DNA from: an uncultured archaeon
GTDB lineage: Archaea; Asgardarchaeota; Lokiarchaeia; Sigyniarchaeales; SOKP01
Direction of reading: 5' to 3'
NCBI GenBank assembly: GCA_964508365.1
Contig: CAZDTP010000043.1
Span: 1-34,719, forward strand
Length of the DNA: 34,719 bases
The first letter of the stretch is position 1. Each line of letters opens with the position of its first letter. The translations under genes were made by a program, and so were the position numbers. The notes below the pieces were generated by a model. The model saw nothing but the letters and a program-made list of their open reading frames with translations. It was not told the origin of the DNA and made no database searches. This document shows positions 13,144 to 17,892 of this stretch, piece after piece.

Positions 13144-14723
13144 TTAGTTTAATTCTTTACCGTAACCTATTAAACGATAACGCCGATTTATAATTCTTGA
13201 AATCGCAAAAATCGAATTCGCTGGAGCACAAATTGGTGGGTTTAAACTAATAATATATGAATTTTTTAAGATTTTTATAACAGTTCCAGCCGTTTTTTCC
13301 GTTCCAACGACGAGTAATAACTTCTCGTTATGTTTTAACTGTTGAACTTTCATCTGTACCTCCACACCTAGCACTCTTTCCAAAAGGTTTACTTGTAATT
13401 CGACTTCAAAAATTATCTCAGGTAAAGTGTCAGGTCTACCAACTAAGTGTCCTATTAGAGAATCTCCCTTCGTCAAAGCAGGATCTAACATGGTTCCTAA
13501 TCCTATTAACCCTCCTGGCTTGGCTTCTTCTAAAGAATTAGTTCCTTGGCTTATGCTAGCTATTTTAGTTCTGAGTGGCTGATAATCATTTTTAACTCGT
13601 AATCCTGGCCTGATCTCAATTTCTTTCCCAACTTGAACCTTTCCTTTTAAAACCGATCCACCAATTACACCACCGTTTAAATCGTTTATTTGTGTGCCAG
13701 GGCGATTTATATCAAATGAACGAGCAACTAAAAATTGGAATTCCTCGTCCTCTTGAGTTATTGGTGATGGGATTATTTCTTCAAATGCTCGAACTACTAA
13801 ATTAAGATTTGCTCCAAATACAGCAGAAATTGGAATAATAGGGGCATTTTGTGCGATAGTGCCCTTCACAAATTCTTTAATCTGATTATAATTTTCTAAA
13901 GCTTGTTCTTTTGAGACAGCATCAATTTTATTTTGTATGATTATAATGTTCTTTATACTTGCGATATTCAACGCTGCTAAATGTTCTCTAGTTTGTGGTT
14001 GAGGACATATTTCATCAGCTGAAATTAACAAGCAAGCACCGTTCATTAAGGAGGCTCCGCTCAACATAGTAGCCATTAATATTTCATGACCTGGAGCATC
14101 AACAAATGATATATTTCTTTTAAATTCTAAGGTTTTTGAACAGTTTGGACAAGTGAATCTAGGTTGCCCTTTTTTTCTAGCAATCTCTGCCATATAGTAT
14201 GTTAAATATTCGTTGCACTCAGAACAATACAAAATTGTTGCGTTAGAATATCCCAATTTAATAGAAATACCCCGTTCTTGTTCTTCAGAGTGTCTATCCG
14301 TCCAATCGCCAGTTAAAGCTTTGACTAGTGTGGTCTTTATAGGAATTGTCGAAATGACTAATTCATTCCATGATCTACATGGCCCACTAGTCCAATATTA
14401 CATTCTGCTTGTATTTTTATTAGTTCTTTGAGGTTAGTGCTTTTTTCTGGCTTTGCCTTTTTTGTTGTTGTTACTTCTTTGGTGGGTTTCTCTTCTGCAT
14501 CCAGTTTTGGAGTTTCTACTTCTGACGATTTCTCCTTCAATAATAATCCTGCGCTTTCTATAAATCTCAATGTTGTTGCTTTGCCAATACCTTTGATCTT
14601 TAGTTTCACAATATCCTCTGGCTTAGACGAAGCTAAAATTTCAACAGACTTAATGCCTGCTTCTACTAATTTTTTAGCCATTTCAGAACCGATGCCTTTT
14701 ACATCTTCTAGATGATAAACCAT
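13144..14723 (-). CDS. eif2g: Translation initiation factor 2 subunit gamma (aIF2-gamma) with N-terminal (HhH)2 domain; two exons, complement(join(13144..14336,14366..14723)), 516 aa when spliced
   Basis: Exon 1 ends NIGLVGHVDHG. Exon 2 reads KTTLVKALTGDWTDRHSEEQERGISIKLGY, then the Zn knuckle, DAPGH, QTREH, NKID, SA and the domain II/III motifs. The spliced CDS is 1551 nt and in frame. Confidence 0.92.
14337..14365 (-). other. 29-nt bulge-helix-bulge (BHB) intron in aIF2-gamma mRNA
   Basis: Central helix AUGG/CUAU, 3-nt bulges AAU and AAA, inner hairpin GAAUUAGUC-AUUUC-GACAAUUC. Cutting after the 2nd nucleotide of each bulge gives CAU GGA AAG ACC (H-G-K-T). Confidence 0.88.
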
Positions 14724-14971
14724 AATAGATTTAGTTTTTTATTATAATTATTTCTTACTAATTATTCCTTAATTTTATTAATTCTCTTGAGAAAATAAAT
14801 AATTATACTTTGTTAATTGTAAACACTAGTTCTCCCATTCATCATATAACCTTTTAAGGGTATTTCTCCCCACGCCATATTTTTTAGTTAATTGGGTGAA
14901 GGAAGAGTATTTAATTATCTCTTTGTTAAACTAGAATGTTATAAAAAGGATTTATTTTAAACAAGGAGAAA

Positions 14972-15199
14972 TCACTTTATCGTTTCTAGCGTTTTTATTG
15001 CCCCAGGTTTCTTCTCTAACTCTTTATAAGACACTCGCAACAGACTATCGACATAAAAAGTTGAAGTTTTTCCACAAGATTCACTCGTATGATGAATATA
15101 AATTGGAGCAGGATATTGAGAGGTATTTACATCCTTTTCTTCTATCCTAAACACTATCCTCTGATTACAATAAGGGCACGTGTTAAATCTAAGTGGCAT
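14972..15199 (-). CDS. Small hypothetical putative metal-binding protein
   Basis: CPYC plus YPAPIYIHH...C; 75 aa with an ATG start. Confidence 0.7.
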   Translation of the reverse strand: MPLRFNTCPYCNQRIVFRIEEKDVNTSQYPAPIYIHHTSESCGKTSTFYVDSLLRVSYKELEKKPGAIKTLETIK

Positions 15200-15325
15200 A
15201 ATAAATACTTGAGTTTTAACTTTTTAATCGTATACTTATTTTTAATTATTTATAATATGTGTAAATATATTTTTTATTCTGAAAAAAATTATATAGTTAG
15301 TCACTTTTTATTATTTTGATTTTCC

Positions 15326-17479
15326 ATGGGGAAGCGTGGGTTTCAGAAATTTATTGTTTTTTCACTTATAATAGTGTTTATCATTCCAGTAATTACTCTC
15401 CGGATTGAAATTGAAGGACAATACACTAGAGAAAAAGAGATAATAGAAAATATAAACATATCAAACTCTCTTCTTAGTTTAGACAATTTATCATTACCAA
15501 GAATCGATTATGATGCATTAAACGACGCTTGGACTAATCAAAAAATAGAAATGTTAATAATCGTAAACGATTCGAGCTTTGTGGATTCTGTTACACCTTT
15601 AATGAACTGGAAAAATGAGAAAGGTGTCAAAACCATCATTTTATCTAATTATACAGAATATGAAGGTAGGGATAAAGCAGAACAGATCAGAAATATGATA
15701 AAAGATTATTACGAGAAGGAGGATATTCAGTGGGTCCTTCTAGCGGGCGATGCAGAAGAGAGTTTAATTCCCATAAGATATGTATATAACCCAGATGTTG
15801 TTGTAGTGAGTGGAGAATCGGAATATTCAGGCTGGAATGCTTATTCCAAACCTACTGATTATTATTATGCAGATTTAACAGGATCGTGGGATAGTAATAA
15901 TAATAGCATTTGGGGCGAATCTGCTGAATATACAGAAGCACTCGACGAGATCTCATGGATTCCAGAAGTATATGTTGGTAGATTACCCGCCGATGATGCG
16001 TTTGAACTCGCTGTGATGGTAAATAAAACTCTTAAATACGAAACTGATCCTTTTCTTGGAAACTGGATGAACAAAATGTTATTAGCGGGAGGAATTTCAT
16101 CGTACATCCCTCCTGAAGACGAAGCACGCTTAACAGAGTTAATTTGGGAAAATTACACAATATGCGAGATGAATTTTACTCATTTAGTTAAAACCACCTC
16201 TTCATTTGCGCCAGCGACCCCACCAACGCCAAATTCCCTTGATTCTCTTACCGATACAAGTTTTCGTAACGAATTTAATGCAGGATATTCAACAGTTATT
16301 TTTGCTGGTCATGGGAGCCCAGTTGAATTGACTGATGATAATAGTATGATATATTATACTTACACTAATGCTCTATCAAGTAGTAATTTGTACATGCCTT
16401 CTTTGTTCTACTCCGACGCGTGTACAACATCCTCATACGATATGGGGGATAGTAGCATAGGAGAAACACTTATTAAACAAAATATCTCAGGTGCGATTGG
16501 ATTTATTGGCGGAATTCGCGTAACTTGGTATCTTGAGGAAGATGATAATTTAGAAAAACTTAACAGAGGAAATGCTAAACTGTTTTGGGAAGTATTTTTC
16601 AAAGAAAAAAAGTTTCAACAAGGAAGAGCTTTGTATGATTCTAAGGTATCCTATATGAATAGCAATTATTTCAAAAGAGGAGAGGCTTCTATGATTCAAG
16701 AATGGCAACGCAAGAATTTGTTAACATACAATTTATTAGGTGATCCTGAATTAGATATATATACAAAAGTGCCAGAGAAAGTGTCTAATTATTTTAATGA
16801 GGATTTATACGAGGGACAATGCGTTTCATTTCAAGTTAAAGATGATCTGGGAAGAATTGTTCCAAGGGCAAGAATTAATTTGAAGGGTTCAAATGGAAAA
16901 TACCGAACAATATACGCCGATATAAACGGTCAAGTTGATTTCAGATTACCTCCAGGAGCTTATGAGAATTATAGTGTAATAATTACCGGACATAATGTAA
17001 TCCCTTCTTATCATAATTTTACTACTTTACCAGATACTGATAACCCGATTATTCTTGATGCTAATCACAGTCCTCTTGCCCCAACGGTATCAGATAATAT
17101 AGGTTTTTCTATACACGCCAGAGACAACCACTCTGGAATTGAGAGTATCTTTGTCATTATTTCTGAGAACAATTTCCATGAATATTCAATATATCGCCTT
17201 GTGAACGAATTTAATGAAAACAATGAACAGTTTGATTTTATTCTAAACAAAGAAGAACCGGGATATTATTCTTACGTTATTGTTGCTAGAGATTATTTAA
17301 ATAACACTAGCCTCTTATTAAGTGATAAATTTAATTTCGCAATACAAAAGCCATTTACGGATGCGGTGTTAATTATTACTTCTATATTAATTGTAGGATT
17401 GGTAGGTGTCTCATCGTTAGTTATGTTAATCCGATTGAATAAATATGAAAAGAATTTTAGGAGATCTGTAGAAAACTAA
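15326..17479 (+). CDS. Peptidase family C25 (gingipain-like), membrane-anchored
   Basis: Signal peptide, WVLLAGD, PTDYYYADL, PEVYVGRLP, catalytic His (FAGHG) and Cys (SDACTT), YNLLGDP, C-terminal TM helix. Confidence 0.88.
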   Translation: MGKRGFQKFIVFSLIIVFIIPVITLRIEIEGQYTREKEIIENINISNSLLSLDNLSLPRIDYDALNDAWTNQKIEMLIIVNDSSFVDSVTPLMNWKNEKGVKTIILSNYTEYEGRDKAEQIRNMIKDYYEKEDIQWVLLAGDAEESLIPIRYVYNPDVVVVSGESEYSGWNAYSKPTDYYYADLTGSWDSNNNSIWGESAEYTEALDEISWIPEVYVGRLPADDAFELAVMVNKTLKYETDPFLGNWMNKMLLAGGISSYIPPEDEARLTELIWENYTICEMNFTHLVKTTSSFAPATPPTPNSLDSLTDTSFRNEFNAGYSTVIFAGHGSPVELTDDNSMIYYTYTNALSSSNLYMPSLFYSDACTTSSYDMGDSSIGETLIKQNISGAIGFIGGIRVTWYLEEDDNLEKLNRGNAKLFWEVFFKEKKFQQGRALYDSKVSYMNSNYFKRGEASMIQEWQRKNLLTYNLLGDPELDIYTKVPEKVSNYFNEDLYEGQCVSFQVKDDLGRIVPRARINLKGSNGKYRTIYADINGQVDFRLPPGAYENYSVIITGHNVIPSYHNFTTLPDTDNPIILDANHSPLAPTVSDNIGFSIHARDNHSGIESIFVIISENNFHEYSIYRLVNEFNENNEQFDFILNKEEPGYYSYVIVARDYLNNTSLLLSDKFNFAIQKPFTDAVLIITSILIVGLVGVSSLVMLIRLNKYEKNFRRSVEN

Positions 17480-17520
17480 CTATATAATACACAGCCTTTT
17501 AAGTTTAACGGTTTATTATG

Positions 17521-17534
17521 AAAAAGTTTAATTA
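17521..17534 (+). promoter_or_regulatory. Candidate BRE/TATA promoter for the 5S precursor
   Basis: AAAAAG-TTTAATTA lies about 20-25 nt upstream of the first hairpin arm (17551); the AT-rich background limits certainty. Confidence 0.35.
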
Positions 17535-17550
17535 CTAGCTCGTACTATTC

Positions 17551-17625
17551 CTATTACTTACAACCATATAAATGAAGCATTTTACAATAATATAGCCAAA
17601 GTTATGAAATGGTTGTTAGTGATAG
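17551..17625 (+). repeat. Inverted repeat / leader hairpin (17551-17567 pairs with 17609-17625)
   Basis: CUAUUACUUACAACCAU / AUGGUUGUUAGUGAUAG: 17 positions with one U-U mismatch and one G-U pair. Confidence 0.75.
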
Positions 17626-17816
17626 TATTAACCACATAATCTCGTAGCAATTAGCTATAACGCCGGAAGTTAAACTGTTTTGCGTTGCAAATAGTACTAT
17701 AGTTGAAAATCTATGGGAACTTGCAAACTGTAGCTTCGGCTACGGTCATGGTAATACAGGATAGTACCCGGTACCATCCGAACCCGGAATCGTAAATGTG
17801 GTTAATGATTATCACT
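17618..17816 (+). repeat. Inverted-repeat processing stem flanking the 5S gene (17618-17637 pairs with 17796-17816)
   Basis: AGUGAUAGU/AUUAUCACU (9 bp, one G-U), a G bulge, then AUUAACCACAU/AUGUGGUUAAU (11 perfect bp). Confidence 0.85.
17669..17789 (+). rRNA. rrf: 5S rRNA, circularly permuted gene (3' half 17669-17734, UUCG linker 17735-17738, 5' half 17739-17789)
   Basis: All 5S elements are present: helix I CUGUAGC/GCUACGG, loop A UCAU, helix II GUAAUACAG/CUGUUUUGC, helix III ACCCGG/CCGGAAGU, loop C ACCAUCCGAAC, helix V UUGCAA/UUGCAA, loop E AGUA/GAA, helix IV with a GAAA loop. Confidence 0.92.
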
Positions 17817-17892
17817 GGTTTTGTCATTTTCTTATAAATAATGTTTTTAAAGCATACAATATAAGTTATAATAAGAGTAGATTAACTCTAAC

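Follow-up and report, generated by a model that had tools for sequence, protein, structure and literature searches.

A circularly permuted 5S rRNA gene and an aIF2-gamma mini-intron as predicted substrates of tRNA-type splicing in a lokiarchaeon

Introduction

In the literature searched, splicing of archaeal mRNA by the tRNA-type pathway, with the endonuclease EndA and the ligase RtcB acting on bulge-helix-bulge (BHB) motifs, is confirmed for cbf5 only, and a permuted essential RNA circularised by way of the endonuclease only for the signal recognition particle (SRP) RNA of Thermoproteus. The cbf5 pre-mRNA of Desulfurococcales and Sulfolobales carries a BHB intron of 16-44 bp in its coding sequence, with cuts predicted between the second and third bulge bases (Watanabe 2002; Yokobori 2009, PMC2738675), and its splicing was shown by cDNA (PMC2738675). 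The SRP RNA gene of Thermoproteus tenax is permuted and the RNA circularised, the circle itself having been demonstrated (Plagens et al. 2015, PMC4731332). Here two further candidates are described from the DNA of an uncultured archaeon (Asgardarchaeota; Lokiarchaeia; Sigyniarchaeales), contig CAZDTP010000043.1 of assembly GCA_964508365.1. The stretch analysed, positions 1 to 34,719, is referred to as the window. The candidates are a 29-nt intron in the gene of translation initiation factor aIF2-gamma and a 5S rRNA gene with its two halves in swapped order.

Permuted tRNA genes, reportedly present in Cyanidioschyzon merolae and Thermofilum pendens, have the 3′ half upstream of the 5′ half, form the BHB from the transcript ends and are presumed to pass through a circular intermediate. 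RNase P and tRNase Z then open such circles again, which gives normal ends. Archaeal pre-16S and pre-23S rRNAs have a BHB in the stem of leader and trailer, are cleaved by EndA and form circular intermediates; 5S rRNA was not processed via circularisation in the cultures studied (PMC12918454). Full-text literature searches returned no account of an archaeal 5S rRNA that is permuted or circular, the only paper on a permuted 5S rRNA being mitochondrial (PMC4267664).

An initial annotation of the window had proposed two non-tRNA substrates of EndA/RtcB, an initiation mRNA and an rRNA, whose four scissile sites share a 4-bp helix followed by AA^N (the caret marks the cut). It had suggested from this a splicing regulon of translation components and had allowed that the proximity of the two genes may be coincidence. 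Every sequence test run in this study bears out the two substrates. It is likely that both RNAs are obligatory substrates of the ordinary EndA/RtcB pathway, that AA^N is partly imposed by the products and partly a bias of the lineage, that the BHB elements were gained independently and are not co-regulated, and that their proximity reflects synteny.

Results

A 29-nt intron in the P-loop of aIF2-gamma

The host assembly (4.07 Mb in 149 contigs, 100% complete, 32% G+C) yielded a single copy of aIF2-gamma, encoded in two pieces (Table 1). The first encodes an N-terminal helix-hairpin-helix (HhH) domain, then a linker and the opening half of the G1 motif, ending in ...NIGLVGHVDHG and the first base of a lysine codon. 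The second completes this codon and continues with KTTLV..., through the GTPase domain and domain II to the C-terminal domain. By itself it covers positions 23-408 of the 412 of the gamma subunit profile and matches Pfam GTP_EFTU, GTP_EFTU_D2 and eIF2_C; its open frame, 13144..14256, can be extended to 14336 and reads KTTLVKALTG.... The 29 nt in between shift the frame and hold an in-frame UAG (14360-14358), and an unspliced mRNA would yield the HhH domain alone (121 aa). Their excision fuses ...GHVDHG to KTTLVKALTG... in frame, identical to the intronless orthologues, and CAUGGAA/AGACCAC is the predicted joint.

The insert and its flanks can be folded into a BHB. The 5′ site reads AUGG (14371-14368), AA (14367-14366) and U (14365), with the predicted cut between 14366 and 14365; the 3′ site reads CUAU (14342-14339), AA (14338-14337) and A (14336), with the predicted cut between 14337 and 14336. 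AUGG and CUAU form a central helix of 4 bp including one G-U, and the two strands have one 3-nt bulge each (AAU and AAA), placed 3′ of that strand's part of the central helix. The intron folds to the hairpin GAAUU-A-GUC/GAC-AAUUC (h′ of 5+3 bp).

Table 1. Features of the aIF2-gamma and 5S rRNA loci in the window.
Feature	Position	Strand	Evidence or content
aIF2-gamma exon 1	14366..14723	-	open reading frame 14358..14723; Pfam HHH_5 E=1.7e-10; intronless orthologues stay in frame
aIF2-gamma BHB intron, 29 nt	14337..14365	-	sequence, fold, presence/absence in relatives, covariation
aIF2-gamma exon 2	13144..14336	-	NCBIfam translation initiation factor IF-2 subunit gamma E=1.4e-157
5S outer processing stem, leader strand	17618..17637	+	pairs with 17796-17816 in minimum-energy fold; z = -4.9 against shuffles
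5S BHB, leader half	17660..17669	+	helix h ACG 17660-17662; central helix CCGG 17663-17666; bulge AA^G 17667-17669
5S 3′ half (GUUAAAC...helices IV/V...CUGUAGC), encoded first	17669..17734	+	weak RF00001 match 17634-17732; hidden Markov model of sister family
UUCG tetraloop	17735..17738	+	links the normally free 3′ and 5′ ends of helix I
5S 5′ half (GCUACGGUCAUGG...loop C...CCCGGAA), encoded second	17739..17789	+	weak RF00001 match 17744-17817; hidden Markov model; covariation
5S BHB, trailer half	17784..17793	+	central helix CCGG 17784-17787; bulge AA^U 17788-17790; helix h CGU 17791-17793
5S outer processing stem, trailer strand	17796..17816	+	stem of about 20 bp in fold

An insert at the same codon was found in 15 of 79 species representatives and is precisely absent in the other 64, where GHVDHG-KTTLV is unbroken. 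A smaller set comprised 30 loci from genomes of this order; the insert is at the exact codon in seven, and the others read GG(N) AA(R) ACN uninterrupted. The inserts of relatives are 29-30 nt long; their hairpin sequence differs by clade with the pairing kept, and the central helix covaries (AUGG/CUAU; AUGG/CCAU in L115 and L162; ACGG/CCGU in L173). Here and below, L numbers designate loci and G numbers genomes of relatives, G000 being the genome of the window itself. The aIF2-gamma protein of G008 is 91% identical, and its gene lacks the insert. At least 10 changes on the aIF2-gamma gene tree are needed to account for the presence of the intron, a rough count since the tree is of one gene and midpoint-rooted.

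The N-terminal HhH_5 domain precedes a linker rich in Lys, Glu and Thr. Open frames of 490-540 aa for aIF2-gamma in family f1, to which the window belongs, and in its sister family f2 suggest that this extension is order-wide.

A 5S rRNA gene with the back half encoded first

Judged from its sequence, the sole 5S rRNA gene of the genome is circularly permuted, with the back half encoded first (Table 1). Genome-wide, RF00001 matched only the two halves, which in genomic order score 16.3 and 15.5 bits and do not reach the gathering threshold of 38 bits. On the window, Rfam gave no match at the gathering threshold or at E≤10, as expected from a permuted gene, and ARAGORN detected no tRNA. After re-ordering of the halves, a hidden Markov model of the normal 5S genes of the sister family matched positions 5-114 (nhmmer, E=4.9e-8). 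The match breaks in two when the genomic order is used, and none of 200 shuffles was matched. The minimum-energy fold of the re-ordered RNA contains helix I and two arms.

Leader and trailer of the gene can pair into a BHB in which the CCGG of the leader is paired with the CCGG at the gene end, and ACG with CGU. The predicted cuts, each after CCGG-AA, lie between 17668 and 17669 (before G) and between 17789 and 17790 (before U). The trailer bulge is 3 nt long (AAU), and helix h is 3-6 bp, beyond which the outer stem of about 20 bp follows. Joining the ends would create ...CCCGGAA/GUUAAACUG... (beginning GUUAAAC), which is contiguous in normal archaeal 5S genes. All four cut sites of the initial annotation were recovered where it had placed them, each with the 4-bp helix and AA^N, and three of the four indeed read GGAA^.

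Normal 5S genes were sought in 117 genomes of family f1 (at least 80% complete) and 10 of family f2, with a cutoff of E≤1e-7. No 5S match was obtained in 115 of the 117, and a normal 5S rRNA was matched in eight of the 10. Two normal 5S genes were set aside as likely contaminants: one in G015 (C263, 51.9 bits), unlike the Loki 5S genes and in a genome that also has a permuted copy, and one in G069 (C68, 80.8 bits), on its score alone.

A total of 59 permuted 5S genes were parsed, 58 from other loci and that of the window. The break of the window (type 1) is present in 41; in 13 it lies across loop C, at a distance of 16 nt (type 2). The BHB of leader and trailer was found in all 54 typed genes, those of type 2 being without inner helix. 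Across 17 distinct type-1 genes 92.5% of the cells are paired, against 31-42% with the partners slid. Helix h covaries (GC in 10 and AU in seven, with no unpaired cells), as do the central helix (CG in 14, UA in three) and helices I, II, IV and V. Pairing in helix I is complete (100%), and three of its pairs have changed in both partners. Since a gene end CCAG goes with a leader CUGG in relatives, the leader is complementary to the gene end and not a leftover direct repeat or copy of it.

A looser pattern spanning the predicted joint matched 43 long metagenome DNA contigs. All four that were tested carry a normal archaeal 5S rRNA (82-88 bits), so the result shows only that the joint recreates the canonical sequence.

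Type-2 genes end in ...CCGGUC^ and start with ^CCAUCC... (in full, they start CCAUCCGAAC... and end ...ACCCGGUC), the end bulge being UC^U or UC^A. They were found at L120, L126, L130, L133, L136, L138, L143, L154, L159, L160, L163, L170 and L177, and also at L014 and L016. Placed on the aIF2-gamma tree, the two types require at least six switches, the break moving repeatedly between the two sites. Some relatives have one or two nested BHB introns of about 30 nt in the permuted gene, either within loop C (UCCG-AA^A...CGGG-AA^C) or within helix IV/V (CUGC-AA^A...GCAG-AA^U), at L105, L111, L116, L117, L129, L141, L161, L162, L169, L175, L018, L019 and L024-L026. The 5S gene of L166 is 181 nt long and may hold two of them.

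Outside the family, a 5S gene with swapped halves (...GCUGUCUAC-UUAG-GACGGCCAUAGG...) was observed on the reverse strand of L012:1330-1720 in G026, a GC-richer genome of another family of the order, with the break seemingly near helix II and loop B. This suggests that the permutation arose more than once or predates the family. In the sister-family genome G032 (C1:1399892-1400758, L004) three normal 5S genes stand in tandem, about 375 bp apart, a possible source arrangement for a permuted gene.

EndA and RtcB

The initial annotation had pointed out that the 5S site calls for an EndA of relaxed specificity, and such an enzyme appears to be present. Two EndA paralogues of about 200 aa are encoded in the genome. 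The alpha-like paralogue (C9:62003-62605) keeps the Tyr, His, Lys triad and matches best to the catalytic chain of the heterotetramer from Aeropyrum pernix. It aligns gap-free with 3P1Z_B and 2CV8 over the region of the crenarchaeal extra loop, as defined in PMC2724299, and its match to the Methanocaldococcus jannaschii EndA begins only past this region. The beta-like paralogue (C1:52034-52639) has a Ser at the position of the catalytic His of M. jannaschii. By these features EndA would be of the two-subunit type with broad or relaxed specificity and the crenarchaeal extra loop; a recent preprint gives the two-paralogue arrangement for 44 of 60 Asgard genomes. RtcB is present (559 bits).

Further introns in mRNA

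The genome was scanned for strict BHB motifs (3-nt bulges, h+h′ of at least 7 bp) whose excision fuses two long open frames, limits that make the scan an undercount. It returned 680 candidates, mostly junctions of neighbouring genes, and recovered aIF2-gamma together with two convincing new introns, so the genome-wide search for additional substrates called for by the initial annotation did yield some, one of them in a translation gene.

The intron in this translation gene, a bacterial-type leucyl-tRNA synthetase (LeuRS), is 29 nt long (C33:27701-27729, L182:2702-2730, reverse strand; UAUG-AU^U...CAUA-AG^A) and lies between PMGYD and SFGLPAEN. On the tRNA-synt_1g profile, exon 1 covers positions 3-46 and exon 2 positions 48-146. 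The intron is present in five loci, and 16 loci read PMGYD(S/A)FGLPAE uninterrupted. In G009, LeuRS has a further 30-nt insert downstream with two TAG codons. The second intron, of 30 nt (C3:30946-30975, L064:1147-1176, reverse strand; ACGU-AA^U...GCGU-AU^C, h and h′ both 8 bp), splits the N-terminal AIRS domain of an AIR-synthase-like protein, the role of which is unassigned and which matches no translation family. Intronless alleles read GFHVTRAALRDLY unbroken; the intron is present in five of 35 relatives, with compensatory changes in the hairpin.

In 25 sampled genomes of the genus the three introns differ in distribution. That of aIF2-gamma was found in G000, G002, G003, G004, G012, G014 and G015, that of the AIR-synthase-like gene in G000, G006, G010, G018 and G024, and that of LeuRS in G000, G005, G006, G009, G023 and G024. 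By this pattern the three would have been gained or lost independently among close relatives, and the genome looks as if colonised by BHB mini-introns wherever the flanks permit the fold, not as if it had a coherent regulon.

Other candidates of the scan were rejected: C1:123160 (a methyltransferase adjoining a proteasome subunit), C41:35490 (a SET domain adjoining a gene of no assigned function), C13:45223 (an HMG-CoA synthase already complete), C52:14244 and C61:8307 (both with a start codon and ribosome-binding site inside) and C9:66152-66178, which is antisense to a V-ATPase gene. The last is a strong BHB-shaped hairpin on the forward strand (about -12.6 kcal/mol), antisense to V-type ATPase subunit I, which may be chance or an unannotated small RNA. 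A motif search for introns in the thiolase and uppS genes gave no clear site. Neither 16S nor 23S rRNA genes were found in the assembly of the window. In the relative G042, a strict scan and a dimer fold of the 16S and 23S flanks gave no BHB of the right hand. Its 16S (L178) and 23S (L180) genes are unlinked and each stands in a very long leader-trailer stem with bulges 9 bp apart and of opposite hand.

AA at the bulges

BHB shape alone is not rare, the strict BHB scan giving 96,809 BHB-shaped candidates in the 4.07-Mb genome. Among these chance shapes AA fills a given bulge in 13.4% and both bulges in 1.8%.

At two of the four sites the product fixes the bulge. The AA at the 5S end is part of the conserved ...CCGGAAGUUAA... 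segment, and in aIF2-gamma the AA of the 5′ bulge falls in the Gly-Lys codons GGA-AAG, its second A being the first base of the Lys codon. At positions free of such constraint AA lies far above 13%. AA was found in 51 of 54 discarded 5S leader bulges (the rest AU and AC), in 11 of 15 3′ bulges of the aIF2-gamma intron (the rest AU twice, AG and UA) and in four of five 3′ bulges of the LeuRS intron. In tRNA introns it fills the free 3′ bulge more often than any other dinucleotide, in about 8 of 19 cases (binomial p = 0.002), in a set that is small and depends on acceptance of the spliced product by ARAGORN. At the third, synonymous position of the Gly codon, all 15 aIF2-gamma alleles with the intron have A, as do 21 of the 64 intronless ones. 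Nested 5S introns mostly have AA^N. Counted over independent sites, AA occurs in 13 of 25 (p = 5e-6).

Other bulges are conserved as well: type-2 5S genes end in UC^U or UC^A (13 loci), the AIR-synthase-like intron has AU^C in 5 of 5 cases, and the 5′ site of LeuRS has AU or AC; tRNA bulges besides AA include UA, AC, CG, UG, CC and GG. Because free positions across relatives, tRNA introns included, exceed the background, AA is read as a general bias of BHB motifs in this lineage, and because conserved sites carry other bulges, as a preference and not a rule. Judged from these counts, the AA signature appears to be real and commoner than chance at free positions, and not special to 5S and aIF2-gamma. 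The A-rich bias is probably functional, reflecting what the enzyme cuts well.

Linkage of 5S and aIF2-gamma

In 58 of 80 species of the family, many of them without the intron, the permuted 5S gene and aIF2-gamma stand 1-5 kb from each other on opposite strands; the two are far apart in the sister family. Permutation of the 5S gene is family-wide, whereas the aIF2-gamma intron is present in about a fifth of species. The linkage is kept with or without the intron and appears unrelated to splicing, as the initial annotation had allowed; the gene neighbourhoods point to an inherited old synteny.

Discussion

Proposed pathway

The aIF2-gamma pre-mRNA would fold into a BHB around the 29-nt hairpin inside the P-loop codons. 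An alpha-beta EndA would cut past the second bulge base on each strand, and RtcB would join the 2′,3′-cyclic phosphate and 5′-OH ends, restoring GHVDHG-KTTLV. In the 5S transcript the leader would pair with the trailer to give a relaxed BHB, with a central helix of leader CCGG and terminal CCGG. Cutting would free a 121-nt 5S piece, and end-to-end joining would recreate the ...CCGGAA-GUUAAAC... of loop C and helix III. For the 5S rRNA this chemistry and the circular end state are proposed after the example of the SRP RNA of Thermoproteus. Most likely the product is covalently closed, with helix I capped by UUCG; a closed circle is the simplest end product because the UUCG loop on helix I is tight and no re-opening signal is evident. 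The AA^N pattern would be imposed in part by the products, namely the 5S sequence and the codons GGA-AAG, and the remainder would be the A-rich BHB bias of the lineage, seen in tRNA introns, the other mRNA introns, the 5S leader and the nested 5S introns.

Several observations weigh against this pathway or parts of it. The proximal exon helix of the aIF2-gamma motif is weak in the window, with 2 bp and a mismatch before a distal exon-exon helix of 8-9 bp. The 5S leader bulge is 2 nt instead of 3, since G17669 can pair with C17783, which corresponds to a relaxed form. In its minimum-energy fold the 5S precursor has the leader CCGG paired to the helix III 5′ strand and not to the terminal CCGG; as the three CCGG copies can pair in three ways, the BHB would compete with a pseudo-mature fold among several near-equal folds. 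A 32-nt pattern spanning the 5S joint had no match in metagenome contigs, and the joint pattern searches gave no RNA-level sign of splicing, only the normal 5S genes of other archaea. As to the signature, presumably working sites with UC, AU, AG, CG and GG bulges exist, and the AA bias could in part be the A-richness of unpaired RNA in a genome of 32% G+C. Finally, two of the three verified mRNA introns, those of aIF2-gamma and LeuRS, lie in translation genes, a point taken up below with the regulon that it favours.

Alternative explanations

That both loci are artefacts or decaying genes is scarcely credible. The aIF2-gamma gene would then be a frameshifted pseudogene or be read by ribosomal bypass, and the '5S' would be a scrambled or mis-assembled remnant with the real 5S rRNA missing from the assembly. 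An assembly of 149 contigs without 16S or 23S invites such doubt, as does the failure of either RNA to reach an Rfam threshold in genomic order. Yet the insert occurs at the same codon, with compensatory changes, in 15 species from independent assemblies, and the interrupted aIF2-gamma is the only copy in a genome that is 100% complete. At least 54 independent assemblies show the permuted layout, including contigs of up to about 1 Mb and CP070805.1, titled a chromosome, and the covariation reflects selection on the permuted fold. The idea that the two-subunit EndA of Asgard archaea strictly requires AA^N, on top of the structural BHB rule, deserves more consideration but is still unlikely. The leader AA is nearly invariant while the adjoining leader sequence varies, the Gly codon is GGA in every intron-bearing aIF2-gamma allele against 33% A without intron, and the excess over independent sites is clear. 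The conserved UC, AU^C and AU or AC sites and the varied tRNA bulges nevertheless speak for a preference, and solved EndA-RNA complexes reportedly show recognition of bulge shape, not of base identity.

The regulon of the initial annotation, in which translation parts (5S, aIF2-gamma, LeuRS and tRNAs) are routed through EndA/RtcB, splicing capacity sets translation capacity and AA^N is the control element, is in our view rather improbable. The share of mRNA introns in translation genes is suggestive, yet too small a sample because there are only three introns and the scan is incomplete. The family-wide dependence of 5S, the stop of unspliced aIF2-gamma mRNA after the HhH domain and the retention of AA even in discarded sequence fit such a regulon too. 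The signature, however, marks no set, because AA is also commonest in tRNA introns, which the initial annotation had itself named as counting against its proposal, and the 3′ bulge of the AIR-synthase-like intron is AU^C; AA^N is missing at the type-2 5S ends as well. The AIR-synthase-like intron lies outside the named translation genes, genomes differ in their intron sets, the introns occur patchily and without correlation among species more than 80% identical, and there is no indication of regulated rather than constitutive splicing. A translation regulon marked by AA^N is thus not supported. That EndA/RtcB act as a checkpoint on translation capacity, with the only 5S, most tRNAs, aIF2-gamma and LeuRS sharing the step and the A-rich bulge tuning efficiency, appears just as doubtful.

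Significance

With both RNAs read as ordinary, obligatory EndA/RtcB substrates, a whole family of Asgard archaea, the relatives of eukaryotes, appears to depend on the splicing machinery for its sole 5S rRNA, and some species also for an initiation factor and an aminoacyl-tRNA synthetase. The permuted layout accounts for the seemingly missing 5S genes in genomes of the family, which lower their quality grading. For annotators, there is the caution that frameshifted essential genes may be spliced. The loci also form a natural substrate set for asking what a two-subunit EndA prefers.

Comparison with known systems

To our knowledge no BHB or EndA is involved in the permuted mitochondrial 5S rRNAs. 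Their gene order is likewise circularly permuted, but they are organellar and not archaeal (Valach et al. 2014, PMC4267664). Unlike the 5S gene described here, the genes of the circular pre-16S and pre-23S rRNAs are not permuted. In the permuted tRNAs the circle is opened again, whereas helix I of the 5S is closed by a tight UUCG loop and shows no evident re-opening signal.

The closest relatives of the mRNA introns are those of cbf5: a short BHB breaks an essential motif of a gene, in a host with a hetero-oligomeric EndA of broad specificity, with gain and loss among relatives. The introns of aIF2-gamma, LeuRS and the AIR-synthase-like gene are likewise short, frame-breaking inserts precisely absent in orthologues. 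They differ in their hosts, which are the aIF2-gamma P-loop, LeuRS and the AIR-synthase-like gene, in the phylum (Promethearchaeota/Loki) and in number, with several introns in one genome; their splicing is predicted, whereas that of cbf5 was seen in cDNA. New in this study are the test of the shared signature, the type of EndA, the occurrence of two break points and of nested introns in a single family, the intron of LeuRS and the evidence against a regulon.

The SRP RNA of T. tenax resembles the 5S most closely, both being essential non-coding RNAs with swapped halves, no detectable canonical gene and a sequence restored by ligation as a circle, which is demonstrated for the SRP RNA and proposed for the 5S. 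The 5S, by contrast, is a component of the ribosome, and its layout extends over a family of 117 genomes, with two break points and, in some species, nested BHB introns.

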